Source of the DNA: an uncultured Gammaproteobacteria bacterium
GTDB taxonomy: Bacteria; Pseudomonadota; Gammaproteobacteria; Natronospirales; REEB76
Assembly: GCA_964584665.1 (NCBI GenBank)
Contig: CAZPAO010000001.1
Location: 83,681-147,680 of the forward strand
Length of the DNA stretch: 64,000 bases
Direction of reading: 5' to 3'
Position numbers and translations under genes: made by a program. The notes under the pieces were generated by a model. That model was not told where the DNA came from, ran no database searches, and saw only the letters and a program-made list of their open reading frames with translations. Shown here piece after piece: positions 2,448 through 54,038 of this stretch (position 1 is the first letter of the stretch; every line of letters starts with the position of its first letter).

Positions 2448-3757
2448 TGAACGCCAAAGTTTTGAGTGAACGCATCGAGAACCGCGCCGCGCGCATCACC
2501 GTCATCGGCCAGGGCTATGTAGGCCTGCCGCTGGCGATCGCCTTCGCGCACGCCGGTTTCAAGGTGACCGGCCTGGACTCCAGTCTCGAGCGCGTGGAAG
2601 CCCTGAACCAGGGCCGCTCACCCATCGCCGATGTCCCGCATGCGGAACTGCAGCATCTGCGCGGCACCGGCCACTACACCGCCACCACGGACTACGCGGC
2701 GCTCGCTGACACGGACGTGGCCATCATCTGCGTGCCCACGCCGCTGCGCAAGACCAAGGACCCGGACATCTCCTACGTGATGGCCGCCTCGGAAGAGGTC
2801 GCTGAACACCTGCATCCCGGTCAGCTGGTGGTGCTCGAGTCCACGACCTATCCCGGCACAACCGAGGAGATCCTGCTGCCGCTGTTCTCGGATAAGGGCG
2901 GCGAGGCGGGCGTGGACTTCTTCCTGGCTTTCTCGCCGGAGCGCATCGACCCCAACAACGCCAAGTTCAAGGTGGGCGACATCCCGAAGGTCGTGGGCGG
3001 CGTGACCAATGAATGCGCGCGCCTCGCGGCCCAGGTCTACAAGACCATCGTGCCCAAGGTCATGGAGGTCTCCAGCCCGCGCGTGGCGGAGATGGCCAAG
3101 CTCTACGAGAACGTGTTCCGTAACGTCAACATCGCTCTCGCCAACGAGCTGGCACTCATGTGCCACCGCCTGGGGGTAAACACCCGCGAAGTGATCGACG
3201 CGGCAGCCACCAAGCCCTTCGGCTTCATGCCGTTCCACCCGGGTCCGGGCGTGGGCGGCCACTGCATCGGCATCGATTCCCAGTATCTCGCCTGGAAGAT
3301 GAAGTTGAACGGCTATGACGCCCGTTTCATCCACCTGGCCGAGGAGATCAACCAGTCCATGCCCGCGCGCGTGGTGCAGATGCTCTCCGACGCCCTCAAT
3401 ACCCGGCAGCGGTCGCTGAAGGGAGCCAAGGTGCTGGCCCTCGGCGTCGCCTACAAGTCGAACGTTGACGACATCCGCGAATCTCCCGCCCTCGAGGTGA
3501 TCCACTTGCTGCAGCAGCGCGGCGCCCAGGTCACTTATGCCGACCCGCACGTGCCCAAGGTCGCCTTCAACGGCACCCGGCTGGAAGCGGTGCTGCCGGA
3601 CGACAAGGCGGTGCGCGATTCGGACTGCGTGCTGATCCTCACGGACCACAGCGGCTTCGACTATAACCACATCACCGATGCCGCCTCGCTGGTGGTGGAT
3701 ACCCGCAACGCCACCTGGGGGATACTGAATCCCAAGGCCGAAGTGATCCGCCTGTGA
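2447..3757 (+). CDS. Nucleotide-sugar 6-dehydrogenase, UDP-N-acetylhexosamine type (WbpA/TviB/WecC-like)
   Basis: N-terminal NAD loop VIGQGYVGLPLA and catalytic-Cys region PGPGVGGHCIGID. 436 aa, a typical family length. Confidence 0.85.
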   Translation: MNAKVLSERIENRAARITVIGQGYVGLPLAIAFAHAGFKVTGLDSSLERVEALNQGRSPIADVPHAELQHLRGTGHYTATTDYAALADTDVAIICVPTPLRKTKDPDISYVMAASEEVAEHLHPGQLVVLESTTYPGTTEEILLPLFSDKGGEAGVDFFLAFSPERIDPNNAKFKVGDIPKVVGGVTNECARLAAQVYKTIVPKVMEVSSPRVAEMAKLYENVFRNVNIALANELALMCHRLGVNTREVIDAAATKPFGFMPFHPGPGVGGHCIGIDSQYLAWKMKLNGYDARFIHLAEEINQSMPARVVQMLSDALNTRQRSLKGAKVLALGVAYKSNVDDIRESPALEVIHLLQQRGAQVTYADPHVPKVAFNGTRLEAVLPDDKAVRDSDCVLILTDHSGFDYNHITDAASLVVDTRNATWGILNPKAEVIRL

Positions 3758-21835: not shown

Positions 21836-21937
21836 CGCCGGGGTTTTACCCGCATCTGATTGCGGGGTTCACCGGATATCTTGCACGGGCTTTGGATGCG
21901 AGAGTTGCCGCCCGGGGATGCAGGTGCAACCCGGATT

Positions 21938-22735
21938 ATGTCCAAGGACGCGGCAGTGATGACTCAGAACGGATTCGTGGGCGGACAGCTGGGCTACAAG
22001 CTCCTGTGCCGCTTGGGACGCGAGGCGACCCGCGAGCAGGACCCCTGCGCTGGCGAGGCCTATACGGGCACCAGCAAGCTCGAGTCCCTGTTCGGCGAGG
22101 ACGTCTGGGACAGCGTGCAGGGCAGGACGGTGCTGGATTTCGGTTGCGGCACCGGCCGTGAGGCCATCGAGATCGCCCAGCACGATGCTGGCCTGGTCGT
22201 CGGCGTGGACATACGCCAGAAGCTCCTGGACGTCGCTACCGCCGAGGCGCGCGCCGCCGGGGTGGCGGATCGCTGCAGCTTCGGCACCCATACCTACGGC
22301 AAGTTCGACGTCATCTTTTCAGTGGATGGCTTCGAGCACTACCAGGACCCTGGCAAGGTGCTGCGCCAGTTCCACAGCCTGCTGCTTCCGGGCGGTCGGG
22401 TCTACATCGCCTTCGGCCCCCCCTGGCTGCATCCGCTCGGCGGACACCTGTTCTCCGTGTTCCCCTGGGCCCATCTCATATTCACCGAAGAAGCGCTGTT
22501 GCGCTGGCGCGCGGACTTCAAATCCGATGGCGCCCGGCATTTCCACGAAGTGGAAGGCGGCCTCAACCAGATGACGCTCAGTCGCTTCCGCCAGCTGGTG
22601 GCGGAGAGCGGCTTCGATGTCGAATCCCTGGAGCCCATGCCGATCAAACGCTTCCGGCGCCTCTTCAACCCGCTCACCCAAGAATTCCTCACCTCCGTCG
22701 TCCGCTGCGCCCTGGTGCGCCGCGAGACGGCCTGA
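21938..22735 (+). CDS. Class I SAM-dependent methyltransferase
   Basis: Motif I VLDFGCGTGREAIEIA. The start is uncertain among 21860, 21938 and 21959. Confidence 0.75.
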   Translation: MSKDAAVMTQNGFVGGQLGYKLLCRLGREATREQDPCAGEAYTGTSKLESLFGEDVWDSVQGRTVLDFGCGTGREAIEIAQHDAGLVVGVDIRQKLLDVATAEARAAGVADRCSFGTHTYGKFDVIFSVDGFEHYQDPGKVLRQFHSLLLPGGRVYIAFGPPWLHPLGGHLFSVFPWAHLIFTEEALLRWRADFKSDGARHFHEVEGGLNQMTLSRFRQLVAESGFDVESLEPMPIKRFRRLFNPLTQEFLTSVVRCALVRRETA

Positions 22736-33328: not shown

Positions 33329-36300
33329 CTATTGGGTCTTGATGAGGGCGTCGGTGACGGTGCCGCCCAGGGTGTTCACGCTCGCCGCCGCCCGCAGGAT
33401 GGAGGCCGGCGCGGTCTTGCTGGTGTAGAACACGGTGCCGTTCTTGTAGTAGTTCACCGTGCCCGCACCCACGGCGATGCGGAACACGTCGCCGGAGGCG
33501 AACTTGGTGTCGGTCTTGTAGGCGCCTTTCTCGTGCACCTCCACGCTGCCACTCTGCAGGCGCAGGGCGTAGTCCATGTTGGCCATGCCGGGGCCGGCTG
33601 CCGGGTTCTCCAGGCCCACGCTGCGCAGGGTGTTGGTCTCCGAGACCACGAACTCCACGTAGCCGTTGCCACCCTGGGTCAGCTGCTGCTGGGAGTCAGC
33701 GATGGCATCCTCGCAGCCGTCGCAGCCGCTGGTCTTCTGCAACGAGCCGCCGTCGGCGGTCACATTGCGAAGGGCGGTCCAGGCCACGGGCAGCACCCGC
33801 GGGAAGCTGGCATAGAGCGCCGCCACCTGCGAGGCATTGAGGGCGGAGCTATAGAGCCGCACTTCGTCCACGGAGGCCGCCAGGTAGGGCTGGGTCGCGC
33901 CGGGGTAACGGGCGAAGTACAGCGAGTCGGTGCTGCTCACGGCACCGGCACGGCCGGTCCAGGCACGGCTGGTCTTGAGCACGCCATCCACATAGAGCTT
34001 GCCGCCGCTAGCGTCGACCGTGTAGGTCACCATGTGCCACTGGCCATCGTTGTAACCCGCGGTCTTCAGCGGACAGCCGCTGTCACCAACGTGATCCGCG
34101 CTGTCGCGCACATACCAGGCGCAGAGGCTGCCGTTGCTCAGGAACACCTGGTAGCCCTTGTAGGAACCGGAAGCGTACTTGTTGATGAGCGCGTGGGTGC
34201 CGCTCGTGTCGGTGGTGTTGAACCAGACCGATGCCGTAAGCGGGTAGGCATCCAGCGCCGCGACATGAGGGACGCTCGCATACTGGTCCACACCGTCGAA
34301 GTTGAGGGCATCGCCCACCACACCCTGGACCCAGACCGGGCTCTTGTGGAGGGTGGCGGTATAAGCGTGACCGGAGCTGTCGGCGGCAGTGGTGCCGGTG
34401 CCGGTGCCGGCGTCGAACTGCCAGTTGCCCAGGGGCTTCGGCAACGTGACCGAACCGCCCGCCTGGGTGGTGAAGGTCTGGTCGGACGAGACGGATTGCT
34501 GCCCCGAGGGATTGCTCGAGATCACCTGGTAGTGATACAGGGTGCCGGGTGTGAGCCCCGCCATGGCCACCGAATGTGCCGTCACCATGCCGGTGTTCAG
34601 CGTGGTGGTGCTGCCGTAGCTCTGGCTGGTGCCATAGGCGACCTGGGAGTTGGCGGACTGGTCGGTGTTCCAGCTCACGGTGGCTGAAGCTGAGCCGGTC
34701 ACGCTGGATGCGACGCCTGAGATCACCGGCGGCAACACCGCGACGTAGGTGGTCACGGAGACGGAGGCTGCCGTCGTGGTGTTCCCCGCCGCGTCGCGCG
34801 CGATGGCGCTGAGCACATGCGCGCCGATAACCTGCTTGGAGGTATCCCAGCTGATCGAATAGGGCGCCTGGGTCACTTCCGCGCCCAGGTTCACGCCATC
34901 CAGCTTAAATTGCACGCCTGCCACGCCCACGTTGTCGGCGGCATCGGCGGAGACGGTGACGCTGCCGGTGAGGGCTGCGCCCAAGAAGGGGGCGGTGAGC
35001 GTGACGCTGGGGGGCGTCGTGTCACTGCTGCTGCCGCCACCGGTCAGGAGCTGATAAGGGATCTTCACCATGAAGGCTTCCATACGGGTGCCGCCCATGT
35101 TGCTGACCCAGAAGAAGTACTGGCCGGTGGGGTCGATGTTCCCCTTCGGGTCCTTGCCGTAGTCGGTGCAACTCGGGCAAGTGGCGTTGCCGCCGGTGGC
35201 GTTGAGGTCGGTCATGACCGGAGCCACCACCAGCGCCTGCTGGGAGGCATGGGGGATGGAACTGTCCAGGCTGAAGCAGATGATCTCGTTGGCGCGGGGC
35301 GAGTTGGTGCGGTTGGCGCCGCTGCCGCAGGCGTACTGCTGGCTGATGGGCAGGGTCGGGCTCGCGTTCTCGAAGCTCACATGGGACGGAGAGAAGGCGC
35401 TCCAATCGTTATCATGGTAGGTCAGCCCTCCCGCCAAGGGGCTCGAGCCTAGGTTCCATACCCGCCAGGCATTGGCATAGTTGTTCCAGTTATCCACGGC
35501 CACGTATGTGCCATAGCCCATGTCCGAGTGGCCGCCGGCGCCGTTCTGGTCTGTAAGTACGGTCTGGGTGCCTGTCTGCAGGTCAACGAACAGGTTGTCC
35601 TCGTCGCAGCTGGCGCAGGTGTCGGAGGGTAGTTTCTCCTTGATGAGGAGGTAGCGGCCGCTCTTGTCTATCTGGCACTCGTCGAACTTGCCCTGGGCGG
35701 GATAGTAGTAGAACTGCTTGGTGCTAACCTTGTAGGCCATGCAGCCCAAGGTCGCATAAGTGCCCGCATCTTCCAGGGTGGCGGAATGGACGTCGTCATC
35801 GTTGCTGGAGTTGGTCTGCTTGATGACTGAGTTGGGGTACTGAGTGGTGGAATCGAACACGGTCTCCATGACGTGGGTCAGCACGTCATAGCGCAGGAGC
35901 TTGGAGCCGGACTGCATGTAGATCTTGGTGGGCATGCCGTAACTGAAGTACCAGCCTTCGGCGCTGTTCCAGCTGTAGGGACTGGAACTCGCGAACAGCG
36001 GGCCCACTTCGGTCAGGGCTTCCGTGGTCTTGTCGTAGCTGAACAGGGTCGGGCCCTGACCGCCGCGATTGCGATCGAGCCCGATGAAGATGTACATCGT
36101 GTTGCTGCCGGCGCTGTTGCTCATGTTGCGCCAGTAGCTGTAGATCATGTCCACGCAGTCCTGGCCGCCGCAGTCGGTGGCGGTGGTGATGCGCACGCCG
36201 CGGGTGTTGTACGGCGCCGGGAAGCTGAAGGCGCCCCGGTCCGGCAGGAAGGCGCTGGTCTGCGCCTGGGTCATCAGGGTGCGCGCGGTAGCGGTCTCAT

Positions 36301-36406
36301 CGTTCTCCAGGAAGCCGCCAGGGGCGGTGGAGGCGGCATGAGCTACGCCGGTGAGGGCCAGGGCGAAGAGCGCGAGGAGGGCGGATAAGGGTCGCCGGAT
36401 GGACAT
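33329..36406 (-). CDS. Large secreted multidomain protein: unassigned N-domain (~450 aa, possibly beta-propeller), Ig-like domain, FN3 domain, LamG/concanavalin-like domain and an unassigned C-domain
   Basis: Signal peptide MSIRRPLSALLALFALALTGVAHA. Ig-like: DNVGVAGVQFKLDGVNLG...ARDAAGN. FN3: ATVSWNTDQSANSQVAYG...GTLYHYQV. LamG: ALNFDGVDQYASVPH...DGQWHMVTYTVD...VDEVRLYSSALNASQVAAL. Confidence 0.8.
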   Translation of the reverse strand: MSIRRPLSALLALFALALTGVAHAASTAPGGFLENDETATARTLMTQAQTSAFLPDRGAFSFPAPYNTRGVRITTATDCGGQDCVDMIYSYWRNMSNSAGSNTMYIFIGLDRNRGGQGPTLFSYDKTTEALTEVGPLFASSSPYSWNSAEGWYFSYGMPTKIYMQSGSKLLRYDVLTHVMETVFDSTTQYPNSVIKQTNSSNDDDVHSATLEDAGTYATLGCMAYKVSTKQFYYYPAQGKFDECQIDKSGRYLLIKEKLPSDTCASCDEDNLFVDLQTGTQTVLTDQNGAGGHSDMGYGTYVAVDNWNNYANAWRVWNLGSSPLAGGLTYHDNDWSAFSPSHVSFENASPTLPISQQYACGSGANRTNSPRANEIICFSLDSSIPHASQQALVVAPVMTDLNATGGNATCPSCTDYGKDPKGNIDPTGQYFFWVSNMGGTRMEAFMVKIPYQLLTGGGSSSDTTPPSVTLTAPFLGAALTGSVTVSADAADNVGVAGVQFKLDGVNLGAEVTQAPYSISWDTSKQVIGAHVLSAIARDAAGNTTTAASVSVTTYVAVLPPVISGVASSVTGSASATVSWNTDQSANSQVAYGTSQSYGSTTTLNTGMVTAHSVAMAGLTPGTLYHYQVISSNPSGQQSVSSDQTFTTQAGGSVTLPKPLGNWQFDAGTGTGTTAADSSGHAYTATLHKSPVWVQGVVGDALNFDGVDQYASVPHVAALDAYPLTASVWFNTTDTSGTHALINKYASGSYKGYQVFLSNGSLCAWYVRDSADHVGDSGCPLKTAGYNDGQWHMVTYTVDASGGKLYVDGVLKTSRAWTGRAGAVSSTDSLYFARYPGATQPYLAASVDEVRLYSSALNASQVAALYASFPRVLPVAWTALRNVTADGGSLQKTSGCDGCEDAIADSQQQLTQGGNGYVEFVVSETNTLRSVGLENPAAGPGMANMDYALRLQSGSVEVHEKGAYKTDTKFASGDVFRIAVGAGTVNYYKNGTVFYTSKTAPASILRAAASVNTLGGTVTDALIKTQ

Positions 36407-36491
36407 GCTGCATAACCTCAGTAGTCATATATGTCGGATGCCCTTGCGGGCGGATGCCGACGGCCACTGGTGGTCTGTGAGCAGAGGAGCT

Positions 36492-36503
36492 GGGGTAATA
36501 CCC
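36492..36503. promoter_or_regulatory. Palindrome GGGGTAATACCC (GGGTA-A-TACCC) ~90 nt upstream of the 1,025-aa protein gene; candidate LuxR/NarL-type operator
   Basis: Read directly from the sequence. It belongs to a family of similar palindromes in neighbouring intergenic regions. Confidence 0.3.
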
Positions 36504-36679
36504 TTAAGGTCCCTGCCTTATCGGCAGGAGATATATACCTGCCATGGGTAACAGAGGTTTAAAGATAGAGGAACGCGTGAGTAAACAGCGACAGAAGCGT
36601 GACCTATGTCACATCGGATTGTCGTCGCCTCGCGGTGACAGCGGAAATCAATCAGGGACTGGAGGAAGCGGGGGTCAGG

Positions 36680-37420
36680 TCAGGGCGTGATGAGCTGTCG
36701 GCGGATGGCGTAGCGGATGAGTTCCGCGGCCCTATGTACGTGCAGCTTGTGCATGATGCGGCTGCGATGGGATTCGATGGTCTTGGTGCTGAGGCCCAGC
36801 TCCTGGGCGATCATGCGCGTGGTGTTGCCTTGGGCGATGAGCATGAGCACCTCGCGCTCCCGTTCGCTCAAGGCCTCCGGCTCCGCCTCGCTGCCAGACA
36901 CCAGGGATGAGAGCGCTCCCGAAGAGAGGCGGGTATTGAAGTGGATGATCCCACGGGCGACCTGGCGGATGGTGTTCACGAGTTCTTCGCCGGTCTGGGA
37001 CTTGTGCACATAGCCGTGCATTCCGGCGCGCAGCGCTTCCACGGCGCTGCCATTGTCTTCCTCGTTGGTGAGCAGCACCGTCTGGATCTCCGGCACCGAG
37101 CGCTGCAGCTCGCGGGCCACGGCGATGCCGTCCATCAGGGGCATGTCGTAGTCCAGGATCGCGACATCCGGATGCCGGGTCTCGGCCATCCGCAGGGCCT
37201 CAGGGCCGTCGGTCGCTTCACCGACCACTTCGAAACCCTCATCCTGCAACAGCACTCCCAGGCTCTCGCGGAAGATGGCATGGTCATCCGCCAGCAGGAC
37301 ACGTGTCGGCGTGCCATGGGCGGAGTGATGGATGTCGTTCACCGTCGGCCCTGGGGCTGCATGGTCATGCCTTGATGAAACCGCGGCGTACCGCGTAGCG
37401 CACCAGGCTCGCCGTGTCAT
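36680..37420 (-). CDS. LuxR/NarL-family response regulator (REC plus HTH_LuxR), third regulator of the stressosome locus (RR3)
   Basis: REC: VLLADDHAIFRE...VAILDYDMP. HTH: LSEREREVLMLIAQGNTTRMIAQELGLSTKTIESHRSRIMHKL. The longest ORF (ATG 37420) overlaps the upstream gene by 56 nt. A GTG at 37342 would give 221 aa, so the start is unresolved. Confidence 0.8.
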   Translation of the reverse strand: MTRRAWCATRYAAVSSRHDHAAPGPTVNDIHHSAHGTPTRVLLADDHAIFRESLGVLLQDEGFEVVGEATDGPEALRMAETRHPDVAILDYDMPLMDGIAVARELQRSVPEIQTVLLTNEEDNGSAVEALRAGMHGYVHKSQTGEELVNTIRQVARGIIHFNTRLSSGALSSLVSGSEAEPEALSEREREVLMLIAQGNTTRMIAQELGLSTKTIESHRSRIMHKLHVHRAAELIRYAIRRQLITP

Positions 37421-37994
37421 GGATCTCGAGCTTCTGCATGATGCGGGTGCGGTGTGAATCCGCTGTCTTGGCGCTCAGGCCCAGCACTTGCGCCACTTCT
37501 TTGGTGGTCTTGCCCTCGGCCACGAGCTGCAGCACCTGGCGCTCGCGGTCGGTGAGGGGGTCTGCGGGGAGTTCGGACTTGCCGATGTAGGCATCCACCA
37601 CGGTCTTGGAGATGCCGGGGCTGAGATAGACCGAGCCCCGGCCCACCTCGCGGATGGCGCCGACCAGGTCGGAGGCGGCCTGGGCCTTCAGTACATAGCC
37701 GCGGATGCCCGCGCGCAGGGCTTCCAGCACGTAGGCTTCCTCTTCGTACATGGTGAGGACGATGACCTGGATGCCGGCGGTCTGCTTGAGTATCTGCTTC
37801 GCGGCATCTATGCCGTTCAACAGCGGCATGCCGAGGTCCAGCACCGCGAGTTCCGGTGAGAGCTGGCGGGCGAGGCGCACGGCCTCGTGCCCATCGGCCG
37901 CTTCCGCCACCACGTCGAAACCCTCTCGCTCCAGCAGGGCTTTCAGACCCTGGCGGAACATGGGGTGATCATCAGCGAGCAGGATACGTTTCAT
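37365..37994 (-). CDS. LuxR/NarL-family response regulator, second regulator of the stressosome locus (RR2) and paralog of 38161-38793
   Basis: REC with ADDHPMFRQGL...LAVLDLGMP. HTH: LTDRERQVLQLVAEGKTTKEVAQVLGLSAKTADSHRTRIMQKL. Confidence 0.9.
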   Translation of the reverse strand: MKRILLADDHPMFRQGLKALLEREGFDVVAEAADGHEAVRLARQLSPELAVLDLGMPLLNGIDAAKQILKQTAGIQVIVLTMYEEEAYVLEALRAGIRGYVLKAQAASDLVGAIREVGRGSVYLSPGISKTVVDAYIGKSELPADPLTDRERQVLQLVAEGKTTKEVAQVLGLSAKTADSHRTRIMQKLEIHDTASLVRYAVRRGFIKA

Positions 37995-38099
37995 CCGGGG
38001 GGCACTCGTCCCGCATGCCGCCGTGCGGGAGCACGGGGCAGCGGGGACATATTACCCCCTGACTATGCAGGTGTATTGCCCAAGGCGGAATCGAGGAAA

Positions 38100-38126
38100 T
38101 ACCCCTAATCCGCTGGGTAATCACCC
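38100..38126. promoter_or_regulatory. NarL-type heptamer TACCCCT (38100-38106) plus the imperfect palindrome GGGTAATCACCC (38115-38126), in the spacer between the duplicated regulator genes
   Basis: TACCCCT matches the NarL heptamer consensus TACYYMT as I recall it. A further GGGG-N8-CCCC element containing TTACCCCC lies at 38043-38058. Confidence 0.3.
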
Positions 38127-38160
38127 CAAGGGCGCGACGATGTGACGATAAACCGCGCGA

Positions 38161-38793
38161 TCAGGCCTTGATGAAGCCGCGACGGATGGCATAACGCACC
38201 AGGCTCGCGGTCTCGTGTATCTCGAGCTTCTGCATGATGCGAGTGCGGTGCGAATCGGCGGTCTTGACGCTCAAGCCCAGCACCTCCGCCACCTCCTTGG
38301 TGGTTTTGCCCTCGGCTACCAGCTGCAGCACCTGGCGTTCGCGGCCGGTGAGGGGTTCCGCCGGCAGTTCGGACTTGTTCACGTAGGCATCCACCACGGC
38401 CTTGGAGATGCCGGGGCTGAGATATACGGCTCCGCGCAGCACTTCGCGGATCGCGCCCAGGAGGTCCGCGGCGGCCTGGGCCTTCAGCACGTAGCCGCGG
38501 ATGCCCGCGCGCAACGCTTCAAGCACGTAGGCATCCTCCTCGTACATGGTGAGCAGGACCACCTCGGTATCGGGTGCCTGCTTGTGGATCTCGCGGGCGG
38601 CATCGATGCCGTTCAGCAAGGGCATACCGAGGTCCAGCACCGCCACACGCGGGTTCAGTTGCCGCGCATGCCGCACGGCCTGGTGGCCATCGGCGGCTTC
38701 CGCCACGATCTCGTAGCCCTCGCGCTCCAGCAGGGCTTTCAGGCCCTGGCGGAACATGGGATGGTCATCTGCCAGCATGACTGTCTGCATCAT
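38161..38793 (-). CDS. LuxR/NarL-family response regulator, first regulator of the stressosome locus (RR1), translationally coupled to the kinase
   Basis: Same architecture as 37365-37994 (about 82% aa identity by my manual alignment). The start overlaps the kinase stop by 4 nt. Confidence 0.9.
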   Translation of the reverse strand: MMQTVMLADDHPMFRQGLKALLEREGYEIVAEAADGHQAVRHARQLNPRVAVLDLGMPLLNGIDAAREIHKQAPDTEVVLLTMYEEDAYVLEALRAGIRGYVLKAQAAADLLGAIREVLRGAVYLSPGISKAVVDAYVNKSELPAEPLTGRERQVLQLVAEGKTTKEVAEVLGLSVKTADSHRTRIMQKLEIHETASLVRYAIRRGFIKA

Positions 38794-39722
38794 AGATTGC
38801 TCCCCAGCGGTATGCTGATTCTCAGCTCGGTGCCCGATCCGGGCGTGGAATTGACTTCGAAGGCGCCATAGAGACTGCTGATACGCTCGCGTATGCCCAT
38901 GAGCCCGAGGCCATGGCGCGCGGGAGTACCCGGAGCAGGGGAGGCGAAGCCCCGTCCGTCATCGCGGATCGTGCAGTAGATCAACTGCTGGTCGATCCAG
39001 ATCTTGATCCATACGCACTGCGCCTGGGCGTGGCGCACGATGTTGTTGAGCGCTTCCTGCACGGCCCGGTAGAGCGCGGTCTCCACCTGAGGTGGCAGCC
39101 GGCCATGGTCGAGGATGTCGTTGTCGATGACGATGGTCAGGCCCGCGCGCTTGCGGAAACCGTCCGTGAGGAACTGCAGGGCGGGCATCAGGCCGAGCTG
39201 GTCGAGGATGGGCGGGCGCAGCTCATGGGAGAGGCGCCGCAACTGGTCCGACACCATGTCCAGCTGCTCGGAGATGCGGTCGACATGCTTTCGTACCTCC
39301 GCCGGAGGCGTCTGGCGCTGTATCTCCGCGAGCTCGAGATACACGGAGGCCAACAGCTGCGCCGCCTCGTCGTGCAGGGTATGGGCGATGCGCTTGGCTT
39401 CTTCCTCGAGGATGTTGTTCAGGCGCCGCAAGGCGGCGTTCGACTCGCGGTTCCCGATCTGCATCATCTCGAAAGGGGACATGCTCTCGATGAGGAAATG
39501 ATAGGCGCCATCCAGCTTGCGCGCCTCACCGTCGTGGGTCTCCACCAGCGTTGACACTGCGGAATGATGGATGTTGACGAGGCCCAGCAGCCCGATGCCG
39601 GAGCCGAGCGCCTGGCGACCGAGTTCATAGGCCTGATGCAGCGGCGCTTCGCCGCCGTCTTTCAGGTAGTCCTTCAGGGCCTTGCGGTAGGTCTCGTGGA
39701 GATCGGGGGAGTAGCCGTGCAT
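38790..39722 (-). CDS. Soluble histidine kinase: RsbU_N-like N-terminal domain plus HisKA_3 and HATPase_c
   Basis: No TM segment. The N-terminal ~100 aa (YRKALKDYL...LHQAYELGRQAL...NIHHSAV...FLIESMSPFEM) resemble the RsbU N-terminal (RsbT-docking) domain. H-box HTLHDEAAQLL, N-box QEALNNIVRHA, G-boxes DDGRGF and GLGLMGIRER. Confidence 0.8.
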   Translation of the reverse strand: MHGYSPDLHETYRKALKDYLKDGGEAPLHQAYELGRQALGSGIGLLGLVNIHHSAVSTLVETHDGEARKLDGAYHFLIESMSPFEMMQIGNRESNAALRRLNNILEEEAKRIAHTLHDEAAQLLASVYLELAEIQRQTPPAEVRKHVDRISEQLDMVSDQLRRLSHELRPPILDQLGLMPALQFLTDGFRKRAGLTIVIDNDILDHGRLPPQVETALYRAVQEALNNIVRHAQAQCVWIKIWIDQQLIYCTIRDDGRGFASPAPGTPARHGLGLMGIRERISSLYGAFEVNSTPGSGTELRISIPLGSNL

Positions 39723-39728
39723 GGCGGC

Positions 39729-40340
39729 CTACCCCAGGTAACGCGCGACCAACGCCAGGGCGTCGTCGGTCTTCTTGCAGTAGCGGGAGATGATGCGCTC
39801 AGCGATGTCAGTGACGCTGCCATCGCCGCGGATCTCGTCGGCGAAGTCGGGTGCGATGCCATCGGTGGCGAAGATGATCATGTCGCCGGGCTGCACGCGG
39901 GTCACCGCGGTCTGCAGCGAGGGCAGGCGCTGGCCCACCACGCCGGGGCGCAACAGCAGGTTCTGCTTCACATACCCGGAGCTGGTGGTCTTCAGTAGCA
40001 AGCGGCCCTCCACGTTACCTATGCCGAGCCAGGTCAGGGTGCCTTCATTGGCGTCGAAGCATGCCAGGTTCATGACTGCGCCACGGCTGCCGGTGAGGGC
40101 AGTATGGCAGCGTTTCGCGAGGCTGATGAGGGATTCCTCGCCGGCATGCCGTTCCACGCAGTCCACGGCCCGTTCCGCCGCTGCTGCCGCCTCGCGGCCG
40201 TGGCCCAGGCCGTCGATGACGGCGGCCACCATGCCATTGGGTACGCCCACCATGGCGTGGCGGTCTCCGGACTCAGCCTGGCCCGGCAGCGTGAAGACCG
40301 CTGCGGCCGACTCGATCACATCGCGCATCACTGTAGCCAT
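39729..40340 (-). CDS. rsbX: PP2C-type (SpoIIE-family) phosphatase, RsbX-like
   Basis: 203 aa. ESGDRHAM...AAVIDGLGHGREAA...IFATDGI motifs. Position directly after rsbT. Confidence 0.8.
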   Translation of the reverse strand: MATVMRDVIESAAAVFTLPGQAESGDRHAMVGVPNGMVAAVIDGLGHGREAAAAAERAVDCVERHAGEESLISLAKRCHTALTGSRGAVMNLACFDANEGTLTWLGIGNVEGRLLLKTTSSGYVKQNLLLRPGVVGQRLPSLQTAVTRVQPGDMIIFATDGIAPDFADEIRGDGSVTDIAERIISRYCKKTDDALALVARYLG

Positions 40341-40783
40341 TTCTTGGCCGTGACGGTGGTGCCCTTGTCGGTGCCCGTGTCTATGTAGAATTCATCCACC
40401 ATGCGGCGTACGCCGCATAGGCCGAGGCCCAGGCCGCCGGACGTGGAGTACCCACCCACCAGGGCGCGCTGTACGTCGGGGATGCCGGGGCCGTTGTCCC
40501 GGCTGATGATGATGACGCCGTGCTGGTTCTCGCTGCCGTTCGCCTTGCCGAGCACGATCTCGCCGGTCTGGGCATAGAGCACGATGTTGCGCGCCAGCTC
40601 CGAGATGATGGTGGCGATGAGCGTCGACTCCGTCTCCGAGAAACCGGATTGGAGTGCCAGCTCGCGTCCATGCTGGCGGGCGGTGACGATATCCATCACT
40701 GTCCGGATGGGGATGACTGCCTTGTCGTCCAATTTCCCTTCCGTTGCGCTTCCGCTCTGCGGTGGGTTGACGGGCCTGTTCAT
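40328..40783 (-). CDS. rsbT: Stressosome serine/threonine kinase RsbT (GHKL ATPase)
   Basis: ARQHGRELA...ATIISELARNIVLYA...ISRDNGPGIPD...STSGGLGLGLCGVRRMVDEF. 151 aa. Confidence 0.85.
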   Translation of the reverse strand: MNRPVNPPQSGSATEGKLDDKAVIPIRTVMDIVTARQHGRELALQSGFSETESTLIATIISELARNIVLYAQTGEIVLGKANGSENQHGVIIISRDNGPGIPDVQRALVGGYSTSGGLGLGLCGVRRMVDEFYIDTGTDKGTTVTAKKWLQ

Positions 40784-41166
40784 CTGGATCCCGCTGGCGG
40801 CCCCACGCTCGTACGCTTGGGCCGTGCGTCCAGATAAGCCAGACCTTCTTCCAGGTCGAGGGCAGTGGGCACGCCTTCCAGGCTGAGACCCAGCTGCACC
40901 ATGGAGAACGCCACCTCCGGTTGGATGCCGACGATCACCGTGTCGGCACCGCGCAGGCGGATCATGTGGGCCATGTCCCGCAGCGTTCGCACTGAGAAGG
41001 AATCCATCACGTCCAGGCCCGTCACGTCCAGGATCACGCCGACCGAACGGTAGCGGCCCACCTGGGCCACCAGCCGGTCGCGCAGCGTCACCAGGTCCTG
41101 GTCGGTCAGCACGGCCTGCACCGACGCGATGAGGTAGTTCCTCTGTTTTAGGATAGGGACTTCCAC
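40780..41166 (-). CDS. rsbS: Stressosome STAS-domain protein RsbS
   Basis: Single STAS domain with the phosphorylatable-serine context DVTGLDVMDSFSVRTL. 128 aa. 4-nt overlap with rsbT. Confidence 0.85.
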   Translation of the reverse strand: MEVPILKQRNYLIASVQAVLTDQDLVTLRDRLVAQVGRYRSVGVILDVTGLDVMDSFSVRTLRDMAHMIRLRGADTVIVGIQPEVAFSMVQLGLSLEGVPTALDLEEGLAYLDARPKRTSVGPPAGSR

Positions 41167-41178
41167 GCCGGCGTGTCC

Positions 41179-42105
41179 TTACTCGTTGTTCTTTTCAGTG
41201 ATGGGCATGACCTTGTAACCCAGGAGCTTCTCGGCCTCTTCGATGCCGCCCTGGAGGTCGCCCACCGTGGCCATCTTGCCCAGGTCCACGCCGATGGTGA
41301 CCAGGGTCTGCGCCAGTTCCGGCGCGAGGCCCGTGACGATCACGTCGGCACCGACCAGTCGGGCGGCTTCCACCGTCTGCACCAGGTGGTTGGCGACCGC
41401 GGCGTCCACCGCGGGCACACCGGTCAGGTCCATCACGACCACTCGTGCGCGGTTTACGCGGATGCCGCGCAGCAGCTGTTCCGTCAGCTGACGGGCGCGT
41501 TGCGGGTCGAGGATGCCGATGATGGGCAGGATCAGCAGTCGTTCGCGCACGGCGAGCACTGGGGTGGACAGCTCGCGGATGGCTTCCTGTTGCTGGCGGA
41601 TGATGCGCTCGCGTTCCTGCACGAAGCCCACCGCCACCGTGGTGGCGATGCGGTTCGCGGCGGGCTCATAGGCGTCCAACACGCGGGTCAGCAGTTGCTG
41701 GTTCTGGCCGTATTTGGCGAAGAGGGAGCGTGCCAGCACGTCGCGCAGCAAGAGCACGATACCCACCACTTCGTGCGTCTCGACGCCTCGGGGGATGATT
41801 CGTTCCGACAGGTCGCGGGCGTAGGCTTCGAGGGCTTCGATCGAGCCGGTCTCCAGCGCTCCCAGGTAGTTGTCGTACACCGAGCTTGCTTCCGCCATGA
41901 TCTCTTCGTTGGTCATGGCGGTGAGGAAGCGGGCGCTCATGATCCGGCTGGCCCATACCTCCCGCAGCTGCGTGCGGTTCTGGCGCAAGTGCGCCACCAG
42001 TTCTCGCAGTACCTCGGCGTGGGATTCGTCGTTAGGCGAGCCTACGTTGCCGGACATCTCCGGCTGCAGTGTGCGGTCTCGGCCTTTGCCCTTGTTATCA
42101 GCCAT
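41179..42105 (-). CDS. rsbR: Stressosome sensor RsbR (N-terminal non-heme-globin-like sensor domain plus C-terminal STAS)
   Basis: The C-terminal STAS LILPIIGILDPQRARQL...VVVMDLTGVPAVDAAVANHL...VIVTGLAPELAQTL is preceded by a ~180-aa helical N-domain. First gene of the operon. Confidence 0.85.
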   Translation of the reverse strand: MADNKGKGRDRTLQPEMSGNVGSPNDESHAEVLRELVAHLRQNRTQLREVWASRIMSARFLTAMTNEEIMAEASSVYDNYLGALETGSIEALEAYARDLSERIIPRGVETHEVVGIVLLLRDVLARSLFAKYGQNQQLLTRVLDAYEPAANRIATTVAVGFVQERERIIRQQQEAIRELSTPVLAVRERLLILPIIGILDPQRARQLTEQLLRGIRVNRARVVVMDLTGVPAVDAAVANHLVQTVEAARLVGADVIVTGLAPELAQTLVTIGVDLGKMATVGDLQGGIEEAEKLLGYKVMPITEKNNE

Positions 42106-42487
42106 GATTCGCTCCTCGTCCTTCCCTCTGTCAGCGGGGATTCAGTTGCAAAGCGGCGTCGCCGCCGGGGTTCAGTTCAGGACAGTCTCGCTGCGGTCGA
42201 TCGCGGATCCCTGAATCCGCCTGTAACCTCAAGACAAACGCTCCATCGGCCCTGGGGTGATGTGCGACAGACATGGTACACAAAATGCCGTGCCGGCCGA
42301 CGAGCGCATATGTCAAGAAACAAGTGCAACATATGCCTCGAATTTCAGCCGTGGAATCCCGCGAAAAACCCTTAATCGCTGTGCGACCCGGGTCTCAATA
42401 CATGCTGTCTTTTGATCGTCTTGAGGCGCTCCGCTGCGCCTGTCCCTGGAATAAGTAAACCTTAGCGGGGCAGGGATATGTAGATAT

Positions 42488-42505
42488 ATAGGGTAAATAC
42501 CCTAT
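42488..42505. promoter_or_regulatory. Palindrome ATAGGGTA-AA-TACCCTAT between the OmpR-type regulator stop and the rsbR upstream region
   Basis: An 8-2-8 inverted repeat read from the sequence, of the same GGGTA/TACCC type as the other sites. It could alternatively be a weak terminator hairpin. Confidence 0.3.
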
Positions 42506-42547
42506 TTGGATGATTGGAAAGACCCCATGGTGAAAAACCAAGCACGT

Positions 42548-43291
42548 TCAGCCGCCAGTGAGCCACTCCGGCAGGAGATCGAAGCGGAAACCCACGTTAC
42601 GCACGGTGATGATGTAGCGGCCCGCATCCCCCAGTTTGCGGCGCAGGCGGCCGATATGCACATCCACGGTGCGGGTGTCGAGGCCGTGGATGGTCCCGTG
42701 GGACCAAGCCTCCTGCAGGAGGTAATCGCGCGTGAGCGCACGGCCCTTGGCTTCAAGAAGCGTCTGCAGGAGCCGGAACTCCTTCTTGGTGAGCTCGATG
42801 GGCTGCCCCGAGACCTTCACGGTCCAGCGATCCAGGTCCATGTCGATCGGTCCCGCCCGCAGCCTATGGTTGGGCGTCACGGCCTGCAGGGCTCGGCGGG
42901 CGATGGCCTTGATATGCGCCATCAACACGTCGACGTTCAGCGGCTTACCCACGCAATCGTCCGCACCGGTCTCCAGCGCCTCGATCTTTTCGGCGTTGCC
43001 CTCGCCACCGGTCACCATGATGATGGGGATGCCCGCGGTATTGGGGTCCTCCCGCAGGCGTCGGCAAGCTTCCAGGCCTCCGGCTTCGGGCAAGTCCGCG
43101 TCCAGGATCACGAGATCCGGCTTCTCGGCATGGATGCTGTGCAGCATCTCGCCTTCGTCATGGGCGGAGACGGCGTCGAAATGCAGTTGTTTGAGGGCAG
43201 AATGCTCCACGCTGCCGGACGCTGCGTCATCGGTGGCGATGAGGGCCTTGAACGGTGCGCGCGATGCGGTCGGTGAGATTCTCAGGTCCAC
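42548..43291 (-). CDS. OmpR/PhoB-family response regulator (REC plus winged helix), no adjacent kinase
   Basis: REC: ALIATDD...DLVILDADLP...IIMVTG. Winged-helix domain: ELTKKEFRLLQTLLEAKGRALTRDYLLQEAW...TRTVDVHIGRLRRKL...ITVRNVGFRF. Confidence 0.85.
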   Translation of the reverse strand: MDLRISPTASRAPFKALIATDDAASGSVEHSALKQLHFDAVSAHDEGEMLHSIHAEKPDLVILDADLPEAGGLEACRRLREDPNTAGIPIIMVTGGEGNAEKIEALETGADDCVGKPLNVDVLMAHIKAIARRALQAVTPNHRLRAGPIDMDLDRWTVKVSGQPIELTKKEFRLLQTLLEAKGRALTRDYLLQEAWSHGTIHGLDTRTVDVHIGRLRRKLGDAGRYIITVRNVGFRFDLLPEWLTGG

Positions 43292-43489
43292 TTTTTTTCC
43301 GGGTCCGCCGGGGGTGCCTTGGCGGAGATGCCAGGAAGTTGGACACCGTCCTTGGCGTCCATGGGTCGAGACTAGTTGAGTCGTGCCTGTGCAGGAAGCG
43401 GGTGAACCCCTGATTAACCGGGGTGTAACACCCGAGGCCGGGATTCAGGGCATATGTCTAAACCCGGCACAGCGCCCTAAACCGGGCCG

Positions 43490-43520
43490 CCAAAAAGAAA
43501 CGCCTCTTTCGAGGCGTTTC
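43490..43520 (-). terminator. Terminator-like hairpin inside a divergent intergenic region (a T-run follows only on the minus strand)
   Basis: Stem GAAACGCCTC / GAGGCGTTTC with loop TTTC at 43497-43520, preceded on the plus strand by CAAAAA (a U-run on the minus strand). No annotated minus-strand gene ends here. Confidence 0.45.
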
Positions 43521-43672
43521 AGTCGACGCGGATGATAGGGAGGATCATCCGCATCGCAGGCCGTGACGTTGCATCTCGGCTTGTGCGGCCGATGGGGAAC
43601 ATCGGCCGTTTGGATCGTGAGGGGTGCACGACCCGAGGCAAAGTCTGGACCGGGCAGGACGTTTTTTATATT

Positions 43673-43684
43673 GGGTAAAAACCC
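43673..43684. promoter_or_regulatory. Palindrome GGGTAAAAACCC ~125 nt upstream of the GT9 gene
   Basis: Read from the sequence. It is flanked by further inverted repeats AACCCGA-A-TCGGGTT (43680-43694) and AGGGG-TAGT-CCCCT (43695-43708). Confidence 0.3.
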
Positions 43685-43807
43685 GAATCGGGTTAGGGGT
43701 AGTCCCCTATATGTCGTGGGAGGCGGTCAGGGGGAGGGGGATTCGACCTTTATGTCGTGCTTGGTTAATATCCCGCGGCGCAGCCCGCGTTCCCTGCCGA
43801 TGGCCTC

Positions 43808-44833
43808 ATGCCTGCACCTGCCGCATCCAAGATACTGGTCATCCGCAACGACAAGCTTGGCGATTTCATGCTCGCCTGGCCGGCCCTGGCCCTCTTGCGG
43901 GCTGCCCAGCCTAAGGCCCACATCGCCGTGCTGGTGCCGGCCTATACGGCGCCCCTGGCGGAGGCCTGTCCTTATATAGATGAGGTGATCCTGGACCCGA
44001 GGCAGAAGGGGGAGTGGCGGAACGGCCGGGCCTTAAGCCGGCTCCTCAAGCCCAAGGGCTTCGATGCGGTCATCACGCTCTTCTCGCGCTTCGACACCGG
44101 CCTCGGCGTATGGCTCGCCGGCATCCCGCGCCGCTATGCGCCCGCCACCAAGCTCGCGCAACTCTTCCACAACCGCCGCATCCCCCAGCGGCGTTCCCGC
44201 TCCGAGAAGCCGGAGTACGTGTACAACCAGGATCTGGTGCGCGTGTTCCTGGAAGAGCAGGGCGTGACCAAGCTGAAGCCGACCGAAGCGCCCTATCTCG
44301 AGTTCAAACCGGCCGAGATCAAGAAGCTGAAGCAAGCCTTCCTGAAGGAACACAAGATCGCCGCGACGAAGCAACTGCTGTTCGTGCATGCAGGGCATGG
44401 CGGTTCGGCCAACAACCTCTCACTGGGGCAGTACGGCCATCTCGCGCGCGCGCTGGCCGGCGCCAAGCGCCATCTCGTGCTCACGGCGGGCCCGACCGAG
44501 GAAGCGCAGGCCCGGCGGCTCTCCAGCCTCATCGAGGGTCCGCACACGGTGCTGGTATCGAAAGAGGGGCTGCTGGATTTCGCGCAACACCTGGCCTTCG
44601 CCGATCTTTTCATCAGCGGGTCCACCGGTCCCTTGCATGTGGCGGCGGCGCTGGACCGCCCCACGGCCGCGTTCTATCCGCGCCGCCGTTCCTCCACCGC
44701 CCTGCGCTGGCAGACCGTGAATCACGCGGACCGGCGCCTGGCTTTCATGCCGCCGGAAAGCGCCGATGAGAGCGACATGGGGAGCATCGACCTGGATAAG
44801 GCGGCCGCCGCCATCGTGAAAGGGCTGTTGTGA
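43808..44833 (+). CDS. Glycosyltransferase family 9 (heptosyltransferase-like)
   Basis: ILVIRNDKLGDFMLAWPALALLR N-terminus and C-terminal FISGSTGPLHVAAAL, typical of the RfaF/RfaC family. Confidence 0.8.
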   Translation: MPAPAASKILVIRNDKLGDFMLAWPALALLRAAQPKAHIAVLVPAYTAPLAEACPYIDEVILDPRQKGEWRNGRALSRLLKPKGFDAVITLFSRFDTGLGVWLAGIPRRYAPATKLAQLFHNRRIPQRRSRSEKPEYVYNQDLVRVFLEEQGVTKLKPTEAPYLEFKPAEIKKLKQAFLKEHKIAATKQLLFVHAGHGGSANNLSLGQYGHLARALAGAKRHLVLTAGPTEEAQARRLSSLIEGPHTVLVSKEGLLDFAQHLAFADLFISGSTGPLHVAAALDRPTAAFYPRRRSSTALRWQTVNHADRRLAFMPPESADESDMGSIDLDKAAAAIVKGLL

Positions 44834-53543: not shown

Positions 53544-53567
53544 GGGTTTAGCTCGACTTGCGTAAAG

Positions 53568-53584
53568 AGGACTATTTTAGTCCT
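53568..53584. promoter_or_regulatory. Perfect 7-3-7 palindrome AGGACTA-TTT-TAGTCCT upstream of the Rrf2 regulator; IscR type-1-like operator
   Basis: The core GACTATTTTAGTC matches the GACTRWWWYAGTC core of the IscR type-1 site as I recall it. It lies 25-41 nt upstream of the regulator ATG (53543) and also faces the divergent DUF962 gene. Confidence 0.55.
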
Positions 53585-53645
53585 ATTACACGTCCGGATA
53601 AAGCCCGGCGCTATAGTGGCGCCAGGCCCCGGAGGATCAGCAGGC

Positions 53646-53951
53646 ATGAGCCAGGATTACCGCCGTTTCCATGATTTCTACCCCTTCTATCTGGGGGAGC
53701 ACAGCGACCGCGTCTGCCGGCGCCTGCATTTCATCGGCACCAGCCTGGTGCTGCTGACCTTCCTGGCGCTCTTGGTCACGGGCCGCTGGCAATGGTGGTT
53801 CCTGCTCCCGCTGTTCGGCTACGGCTTCGCCTGGGTGGGGCATTTCTTCTTCGAGAAAAACCGGCCCGCTACCTTCACCCATCCCATCTACAGTTTCATC
53901 GGGGATTGGGTCATGTTCCGCGACATACTTTTCGGGAAAATTCCGTTCTGA
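53646..53951 (+). CDS. DUF962 (Mpo1-like) small membrane protein
   Basis: FHDFYPFYLGEHSDRVCRRLHFIGTSL plus two TM helices and FFFEKNRPATF. The start is placed at ATG 53646. Confidence 0.6.
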   Translation: MSQDYRRFHDFYPFYLGEHSDRVCRRLHFIGTSLVLLTFLALLVTGRWQWWFLLPLFGYGFAWVGHFFFEKNRPATFTHPIYSFIGDWVMFRDILFGKIPF

Positions 53952-54038
53952 GACTCGCGTCGTCATCCTGACCCATTCCGTTACAATACGCGCCGCCGGA
54001 GGGGTCCGGCATCGTCTTCAAGCAGAGGGCTGCGCGCA

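Follow-up and report, generated by a model that had tools for sequence, protein, structure and literature searches.

The stretch of DNA analyzed here, referred to throughout as the window, comprises 64,000 nucleotides from an uncultured gammaproteobacterium (contig CAZPAO010000001.1, positions 83,681 to 147,680) and harbors a stressosome operon with a two-component output, in which the genes for RsbR, RsbS, RsbT, and an RsbX-like phosphatase are followed by that for an RsbU_N kinase (Pfam). Scattered through the spacers around this operon, and recurring in an exopolysaccharide (EPS) locus of the same window, are short palindromes with GGGT and ACCC arms, here termed boxes. These boxes are genuine, non-random, and conserved cis-elements that are largely restricted to non-coding DNA.

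The stressosome locus and its relatives

The genes of the locus are as follows; the order of those on the minus strand comes from Pfam.

43808-44833, divergent from the OmpR-type regulator gene: GT9 gene
42548-43291, minus strand: OmpR-type regulator
41179-42105, minus strand: RsbR (STAS with RsbRD_N)
40780-41166, minus strand: RsbS (STAS)
40328-40783, minus strand: RsbT (HATPase_c)
39729-40340, minus strand: SpoIIE-type phosphatase (RsbX-like PP2C)
38790-39722, minus strand: RsbU_N-HisKA_3-HATPase_c histidine kinase
38161-38793, minus strand: response regulator RR2, REC+GerE (NarL/LuxR-type)
37365-37994, minus strand: response regulator RR1, REC+GerE (NarL/LuxR-type)
36680-37420, minus strand: response regulator RR3, REC+GerE (NarL/LuxR-type)
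33329-36406, minus strand: giant secreted protein of 1,025 residues, Big_7 / Laminin_G (Ig/laminin-G)

An earlier note on this DNA had assigned the OmpR-type gene to the wrong strand; it occupies the minus strand at 42548-43291. The stop codon of this gene thus precedes the palindrome at 42488 by 43 nt, and rsbR follows the palindrome about 385 nt further on.

Nine syntenic loci, all from gammaproteobacterial metagenome-assembled genomes (MAGs) with kinase identities of 59–80% overall, were available for comparison. L001, a co-linear MAG locus at 78% nucleotide identity, was the sole close locus from a scan of a genome collection, and a metagenome scan yielded one 1.8-kb fragment. The remaining loci are contigs that encode kinase homologues, at 69–73% kinase identity for L006–L011, 63% for L016, and 59% for L017. 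Four further EPS loci, L012–L015, were found by an asnB search. The gene order from stressosome to kinase is repeated in nine loci, and the cluster of every locus encodes a HisKA_3 kinase together with three REC+GerE regulators and places an OmpR-type regulator gene directly upstream of rsbR. L006–L011 and L016 preserve the gene order between the OmpR-type regulator and the giant protein, and L017 preserves it up to RR3.

A box family concentrated in non-coding DNA

The earlier note had described a family of GGGTA-N1-3-TACCC palindromes in the intergenic regions around the stressosome, with one more in the EPS locus. Every string that it quoted is present at its position, including TACCCCT at 38100-38106, as is the 10-mer GGGGTTCACC (21864-21873) with its reverse complement GGTGAACCCC (43401-43410). 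The sites are thus real, but the strict form accounts for two exact matches only (36493 and 42491), and GGGT-N2-5-ACCC is needed as the common denominator of the quoted sites. The list itself had overlooked two boxes, one at 43694-43709 and a degenerate one at 38093-38106.

Nine matches to GGGT-N2-5-ACCC occur in the window. Eight are non-coding, and the roughly 61 kb of coding DNA contributes a single match, at 3174 within the UDP-glucose dehydrogenase gene. The coding map, drawn from frame-specific GC3 (GC content at third codon positions) and Pfam, leaves about 2.4 kb (2,376 bases) as non-coding, where a first-order Markov model trained on these same bases expects 0.27 matches against the 8 observed. 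None of 2,000 simulations gave eight matches, the maximum being three; mononucleotide shuffles were run as well. When all 256 four-base arms were enumerated across 13 spacer classes in the non-coding DNA of the window, GGGT/ACCC with N2-5 ranked first among the 3,328 palindrome patterns (Poisson p = 4.7e-10), and the post-hoc choice of this pattern therefore cannot account for its enrichment.

The same bias extends to the window and 12 loci taken together. Over this set, GGGT-N4-ACCC occurs 14 times in 20 kb of non-coding DNA versus 3 times in 251 kb of coding DNA, while control palindromes of equal composition have 0–5 non-coding matches. The box consensus, GGGTGATTACCC, returns 28 non-coding versus 8 coding matches at up to two mismatches; twelve shuffled-seed controls return 0–4 non-coding and 6–42 coding matches. 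Within the window, the other larger spacers (53544-54038, of 495 bp, and the short EPS-locus spacers) hold no paired site and nothing within three mismatches of the 12-mer.

The consensus can be read as two overlapping copies of the half-site GGGTRA, with a 12-bp form GGGTGA-TTACCC. Exact copies of GGGTGATTACCC are found at 38115 in the window (as the reverse complement) and upstream of rsbR in L006, L007, L008, L011, and L017, and an 11-bp variant, GGGKTTCACCC, is found at the boxes of the OmpR-type regulator (proximal), the EPS locus, and the giant-protein gene. The asymmetric center of the box reverses orientation among orthologues (AATC vs. GATT) and hence fits binding by a symmetric dimer.

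Conservation and promoter geometry

The boxes of the window and the −10-like hexamers associated with them are listed below, grouped by the gene that they precede.

Upstream of rsbR
42488..42505: box B, ATAGGGTAAATACCCTAT, a perfect 8+2+8 palindrome and the best-conserved box
42459..42464, minus strand: −10-like hexamer TAAGGT, 26 nt downstream of box B
Upstream of RR1, in the RR2-to-RR1 spacer
38115..38126: box C-distal, GGGTAATCACCC, the reverse complement of GGGTGATTACCC
38093..38106, minus strand: box C-proximal, AGGGGTATTTCCTC, whose plus strand contains TACCCCT
38062..38067, minus strand: −10-like hexamer CATAGT, 25 nt downstream of box C-proximal
Upstream of the small-RNA candidate
43694..43709: sRNA-distal box, TAGGGGTAGTCCCCTA, a palindrome of 6+4+6 that precedes the proximal box by about 22 bp
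43673..43684: sRNA-proximal box, GGGTAAAAACCC
43641..43646, minus strand: hexamer AGACTT, 26 nt past the sRNA-proximal box and 7 nt before the first hairpin
Upstream of the OmpR-type regulator gene
43421..43433: OmpR-distal box, GGGTGTAACACCC, with only one arm conserved
43400..43410: OmpR-proximal box, GGGTGAACCCC, the reverse complement of GGGGTTCACCC, an 11-bp variant
43374..43369: OmpR-proximal hexamer TAGTCT, 25 nt after the box
In the EPS locus
21840..21851: EPS distal box, GGGGTTTTACCC, 5 nt past the asnB stop codon
21864..21873: EPS proximal box, GGGGTTCACC, spaced 24 bp from its distal counterpart (a 24-bp direct repeat)
21900-21905: −10-like hexamer GAGAGT, 26 nt after the EPS proximal box
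Upstream of the giant-protein gene
36492..36503: box D, GGGGTAATACCC, a GGGT-N3-ACCC site 92 bp before the start codon

Phylogenetic footprinting, which the earlier note had suggested as a check, recovers the boxes at orthologous sites, in as many as nine related loci. For those at 42489, 38115, 43400, and 43673, column identity is 0.71–0.91, versus 0.40–0.48 for the rest of their spacers. Box B is the clearest instance: TAGGGT-N4-ACCCTA occurs in all nine loci (the aligned set plus L016 and L017) amid a poorly conserved spacer, with a column identity of 0.88 vs. 0.40 for the remainder of the spacer between the OmpR-type gene and rsbR. The corresponding values are 0.77 vs. 0.43 for box C-distal, 0.91 vs. 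0.48 for the OmpR-proximal box, and 0.71 vs. 0.48 for the sRNA-proximal box.

Conservation extends to spacing. In five promoters, those of rsbR, RR1, the small-RNA candidate, the OmpR-type regulator, and the EPS genes, a conserved −10-like hexamer follows the gene-proximal box at 24–26 nt, and a second box often precedes the proximal one by 21–24 bp. Box B and its hexamer, a putative promoter element that reads TAANGT in other loci, are separated by 26 nt in eight loci and by 25 nt, to TAAAGT, in L017, such that the rsbR layout holds in nine of nine loci. From these distances we infer a box center at about −42 to −44.5, with the second box near −65, that is, an activator-type layout in which the box would stand in place of a weak −35 element. 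A scan of 36300-43900 for the sigma-70 consensus picked out no promoter-like site, and the promoters are therefore weak or non-canonical.

The spacer between RR2 and RR1 follows the same plan, with GGTGATTACCC and GGGYGAWTACC placed 21–22 bp apart. The right arm of box C-proximal is degenerate in the window; GGGYGAWTACC is its orthologue in the other loci. The hexamer CATAGT is invariant at fixed spacing before RR1 in every aligning locus (the window, L001, and L006–L011); it was not found in L016 and is absent from L017. L010 and L016 carry an extra single-domain STAS gene between RR2 and RR1 (L010, 11743-12150; L016, 11724-12146), and the two-box arrangement, here with TATAAGT, is duplicated before this insertion.

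Upstream of the OmpR-type regulator gene, the other loci have a pair composed of GGGTCGTTTCC and GGGGTTCACCC, followed at 24–26 nt by TTTAAT or TTTAAC (24 nt), TAACTT, or TAAGCT. The distal member of this pair, which the earlier note had counted in the family as 43420-43433, does not hold up as a conserved palindrome: its identity is 0.51, the other loci read GGGTCGTTTCC, and only in the window is the site palindromic.

The EPS locus repeats the architecture of the OmpR-type regulator pair. The two-box layout after asnB is kept in the window, L012/L013, L014, and L015, the distal box reading GGTTTCTTCACC in L012, GGTGTATCCGCC in L014, and GGGTGAAACCC in L015, and the hexamers GAGAGT, CAAAGT, and CAGACT follow at 25–26 nt in four loci. 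Among these loci, the window and L015 alone have a methyltransferase gene after asnB (21860-22735 in the window), and in L015 the conserved two-box spacer comes after this gene and not before it.

A small-RNA candidate behind a conserved box pair

In the divergent spacer between the GT9 and OmpR-type regulator genes, a further pair, GGGGGATAACC at the sRNA-distal position and GGGGTATTTACC (the reverse complement form of the proximal box) in the other loci, stands upstream of a near-invariant block of about 150 nt. This block corresponds to a small-RNA (sRNA) candidate.

43493..43640, minus strand: small-RNA candidate with five hairpins and a strong rho-independent terminator at 43520-43497

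The candidate is near-invariant over six loci and absent from L010, L016, and L017. Its RNAalifold structure has 49 pairs, 6 of them with compensatory changes, and three of its loops are C-rich (CACCCCU, YUCCC, and CCUCCCU), a feature reminiscent of anti-Shine-Dalgarno sRNAs. It has no Rfam match, nor does any known RNA family appear in the window at gathering thresholds; at E values up to 1, Rfam returned for 43300-43810 only a chance CRISPR-DR match on the sRNA terminator. The loose-pattern match at 43622, absent from the earlier list, represents the first hairpin of the candidate and not a box. Between the box pair and this hairpin, the hexamer A(G/A/C)ACTT is equally spaced in six of six loci. 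AGACTT is possibly a weak −10 element, an assignment that is tentative because its position 2 is not conserved.

Two repeats were observed in this spacer. A 19-nt direct repeat at 84% identity connects 43420-43438, at the OmpR-distal box, with 43621-43639, at the 5′ end of the sRNA candidate, and CGGGTCGT is common to both places in other loci too. The direct repeat CCT(A/T)TATGTCGTG, with copies at 43706-43718 and 43747-43759 spaced 41 bp apart, lies between the sRNA promoter region and GT9 and is window-specific.

The upstream region of the giant-protein gene

Box D lies about 27 nt downstream of an invariant block, CAGGTATA(A/T)AT, and its arms are kept in most loci. Its link to the other boxes is the weakest, because it is no better conserved than its spacer, a region conserved as a whole, and lies downstream of the TATA(A/T)AT block. 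Placed past the likely promoter, box D may act in repression, or may serve another paralogue. Sigma-54, sigma-28 (GCCGATAA), and standard −35/−10 promoters were considered for this upstream region and dropped, as their spacings do not fit.

Other elements in the same region were noted in passing. A CRP/FNR-like TGTGA-N6-TCAC palindrome lies at 36598-36613 (TGTGACATAGGTCACG on the minus strand), and GATGTGACATAGCTCACG, representing this site, is essentially invariant in all eight loci aligned. In a hairpin at 36513-36529, CCTGCCTTATCGGCAGG, a G-C pair is replaced by A-U in L001 (CCTACC..GGTAGG), a compensatory change; the hairpin falls inside an invariant CCG(A/G)TA(A/G)GG block just past CAGGTATA(A/T)AT, and its stem is not kept in other loci. 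In L010, the near-consensus box ATTGGGTGATTACCTGAT at 1780 occupies a divergent spacer between the gene for a large fn3 protein and the genes for hypothetical and Big_7 proteins, which suggests that further large surface proteins may belong to the regulon.

Candidate binders of the boxes

Given that the boxes recur at fixed promoter positions and are conserved in relatives, they most likely mark target genes of the stress pathway. With moderate confidence, we read them as operators of a dimeric helix-turn-helix factor, the likeliest being the NarL-type regulators RR1 and RR2 acting downstream of the RsbU_N-HisKA_3 kinase. These two regulators are proposed because the site is palindromic, the positions would be autoregulatory, and a HisKA_3 kinase adjoins them. 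HisKA_3 kinases partner with regulators of the NarL family, and inverted repeats are the targets of GerE-type dimers. RR1 and RR2 are 83% identical and have the same recognition helix, KTADSHRTRIMQKL, and the best solved-structure matches of RR2 are VraR, DesR, NarL, and DevR. RR3 is 48% identical, with a different recognition helix. As expected of a generic NarL/LuxR operator, the rsbR-to-RR2 operon and RR1-RR3 are each preceded by palindromes of 11–18 bp, which are kept in those syntenic loci that can be aligned at these places.

Several observations weigh against this assignment, or limit how far it reaches. Arm spacing ranges from N2 to N5, more variation than a rigid dimer could accommodate, so that sites for two or more proteins may be mixed in the family. 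Box D is exactly as conserved as its spacer (0.54 vs. 0.54) and stands outside the activator (−44) layout, and AGACTT lacks the key A at position 2. The −10-like hexamers were picked after looking, by conservation and by eye, and the transcription starts are deduced from them. The scan covered 64 kb of the source genome and about 210 kb from relatives, and orthologous copies of a box are not statistically independent. The OmpR-type gene is, moreover, as tightly syntenic as the NarL-type genes, and synteny therefore leaves room for an OmpR-type binder. That the boxes are real operators of such a different protein, either this orphan OmpR-type regulator or a factor encoded elsewhere in the genome, strikes us as unlikely, though worth serious consideration. 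The promoter of the OmpR-type gene itself has a strongly conserved box (identity 0.91), several boxes form direct tandem pairs 21–24 bp apart, and the word GTTTACT (11 non-coding and 0 coding matches) together with the conserved CRP-like TGTGA-N6-TCAC indicates that more than one factor acts at these spacers. OmpR/PhoB-type winged-helix regulators, however, typically bind direct repeats with a period of 10–11 bp and not 12-bp palindromes, whereas the single box is an inverted repeat with a flipping center, which fits a symmetric dimer; the operon kinase, too, is of the HisKA_3 type that partners with NarL-type regulators.

A role as RNA or DNA hairpins lying between co-directional genes (weak terminators, attenuators, or signals for processing or stability) would dispense with a binding protein altogether, and we regard it as very improbable. 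It draws on the fact that most boxes are also downstream of a gene (OmpR-type, RR2, RR3, asnB, and the sRNA terminator), on box B and the 43694 box, which out-fold all 200 shuffles (z about −2.7), on one symmetric A-T to C-G change in box B of L017, and on box D, which would fall in a 5′ leader if TATA(A/T)AT were a −10 element. Yet the stems span only 4–7 bp, with predicted energies between −4 and −9 kcal/mol, six of the eight fold no more stably than shuffled sequence, a U tract is lacking at every box, and a terminator scan picked none of them. The arm sequence is conserved rather than co-varying while the center is variable, and L010 and L016 show uncompensated arm changes. The spacer holding the pair before the sRNA candidate is divergent, and no gene precedes the pair on that strand; the fixed 24–26 nt distance to the −10-like hexamers would not be expected of hairpins. 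Dispersed repeats resembling repetitive extragenic palindromes (REP) or miniature inverted-repeat transposable elements (MITE) were rejected, as nothing is common beyond the boxes of 10–19 nt and their positions are orthologous at 59–74% protein identity. Least credible of all is a by-product of chance and composition in AT-richer spacers. The pattern was admittedly loose and chosen post hoc, the density per kb of GGGTA and TACCC in general is 4–7 times higher in non-coding DNA than in coding DNA, and the whole-window count of 9 is near the naive whole-window expectation; the Markov expectation of 0.27 against 8, the top rank among 3,328 patterns, the flat controls, and the orthologous conservation effectively refute it.

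A proposed circuit

Under the assignment to RR1 and RR2, stress would free RsbT from the RsbR/RsbS stressosome, RsbT would switch on the RsbU_N-HisKA_3 kinase, and the kinase would phosphorylate the NarL-type regulators. Dimers of these regulators would sit on a box centered about 42–45 bp upstream of the transcription start, at the usual −35 place, often fill a second box two helical turns further upstream, and thereby activate promoters with weak −35 elements; RR3 may take the 11-bp variant. One target would be the rsbR-to-RR2 operon itself, resulting in positive feedback. Others would be the RR1-RR3 genes, the OmpR-type regulator gene, the small RNA with C-rich loops, and the EPS genes downstream of asnB.

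The earlier note had envisioned a single regulon uniting the giant protein, the stressosome operon, and part of the EPS locus. Sequence comparison now supports this single-regulon idea in outline, with the pair conserved in four further EPS loci; the giant-gene link is the weakest. The proposed regulon is wider and also takes in the sRNA candidate and the OmpR-type regulator gene. A bolder and more doubtful proposal, which we put forward only tentatively, is that the boxes constitute the first regulon placed directly under a Gram-negative stressosome that acts independently of a sigma factor; such a stressosome would drive a surface or biofilm switch as opposed to a classical general stress response. 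The signal would pass from RsbT through the RsbU_N-HisKA_3 kinase to paralogous NarL-type regulators. These regulators would switch on their own operons, the hitherto undescribed small RNA with its three C-rich, anti-Shine-Dalgarno-like loops, the orphan OmpR-type regulator, and the EPS genes, and the giant surface-protein gene would be controlled via its differently placed box.

As such, this conserved, position-fixed motif gives a concrete list of candidate targets, possibly including the 1,025-residue Ig/laminin-G protein, and a pattern with which to search whole genomes of this uncultured lineage of Gammaproteobacteria for the regulon.

Comparison with known systems

The kind of finding is conventional: a response-regulator box with class-II-like promoter geometry. 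As at class II promoters (about −41.5), which depend on activators such as CRP/FNR and many response regulators, the box adjoins or takes the place of the −35 region, its distance from the −10 element is constant, −35 hexamers are weak, and an extra upstream site is found two helical turns away. Unlike in those cases, the position here (−42 to −44.5) is estimated from −10-like hexamers chosen by eye.

NarL offers the most familiar analogy. Its 7-2-7 site is TACYYMT-NN-AKRRGTA, and the earlier note had likened the half-sites here to the NarL heptamer. The half-site does contain TACCC/GGGTA as in the NarL/NarP heptamers of E. coli, TACCCCT at 38100-38106 matches the heptamer exactly, box B also fits a 7-2-7 notation, TAGGGTA-AA-TACCCTA, and the presumed binders are likewise REC+GerE proteins. 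However, the boxes run AKRRGTA-NN-TACYYMT, with GGG outermost, and none has the 7-2-7 orientation; because the half-sites are oriented the opposite way, the analogy is only partial and the likeness superficial. The TACCCTA half-sites of box B match five of seven TACYYMT positions, and most other boxes retain only (T)ACCC. The setting differs as well, in that a stressosome occurs here without a nitrate/nitrite context and the regulators are nearer to VraR and DesR.

Two other NarL-family systems share the GGG...CCC arrangement. The core of the DosR/DevR box of Mycobacterium is GGGAC-N4-GTCCC. As in the present case, a palindrome runs from a G triplet to a C triplet, is bound by a NarL-family dimer, and occurs as tandem boxes at stress-induced promoters, and DevR is among the structural matches of RR2; in contrast, the arms here are GGGT/ACCC, the spacing is GGG-N6-CCC versus N8, and phylum and signal differ. 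NreC, likewise of the NarL family, has as its partner the HisKA_3 kinase NreB, which senses via a PAS domain with an Fe-S cluster. The NreC box of Staphylococcus is reportedly TAGGG-N4-CCCTA, a GC-rich palindrome, a description said to go back to Fedtke et al. in 2002. Box B and the 43694 box share its GGG...CCC orientation and its TAGGG/CCCTA half-sites, but separate them by N6 and not by N4, and the kinase input here is RsbU_N with RsbT, as opposed to the PAS Fe-S module of NreB. In nar and nir promoters, a GC-rich palindrome is bound by phosphorylated NreC, or NreC-P (PMC8139620), and RsbU_N-containing kinases have been labelled "NreB" in a Gammaproteobacterium (PMC12143880).

At the level of the operon, the closest parallel is the Vibrio vulnificus-type stressosome, in which RsbR-RsbS-RsbT-RsbX are likewise followed by two-component proteins and not by RsbU and sigma-B. 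Papers on V. vulnificus call the physiological role of Gram-negative stressosomes little known and report only an association with two-component genes (PMC9237108, PMC10014275). Kinases bearing an RsbU N-terminal domain occur in rsbT operons of some Proteobacteria (PMC12143880, citing Heinz et al. 2022; PMC9237108), and the downstream kinase of V. vulnificus was reported to be without a detectable RsbU_N domain (PMC9237108). The present locus differs in that RsbU_N is present and three NarL-type regulators follow. A DNA target motif or direct regulon for the output of a Gram-negative stressosome is not described in PMC9237108 or PMC10014275, and a literature search for the 12-mers retrieved only unrelated primers.

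Other repeated words in the stressosome spacers

Just upstream of the rsbR start codon, the direct repeat GC(G/C)GGG(A/G)TTCAGTT occurs at 42134-42147 and 42164-42177, its copies 30 bp apart. The word GTTTACT(TAA), at 42454 and 36580 (minus strand) in the window, is shared by the spacers upstream of rsbR and of the giant-protein gene, also in L006–L011 and L016; the copy in the rsbR spacer overlaps the putative −10 element and start region. GACATAT is found at 36429, 38046, 42308, 43452, and 43709, five copies in four stressosome-flanking spacers, with one further copy in coding DNA, and of these only the rsbR-upstream copy (TTGACATAT) is kept in other loci.

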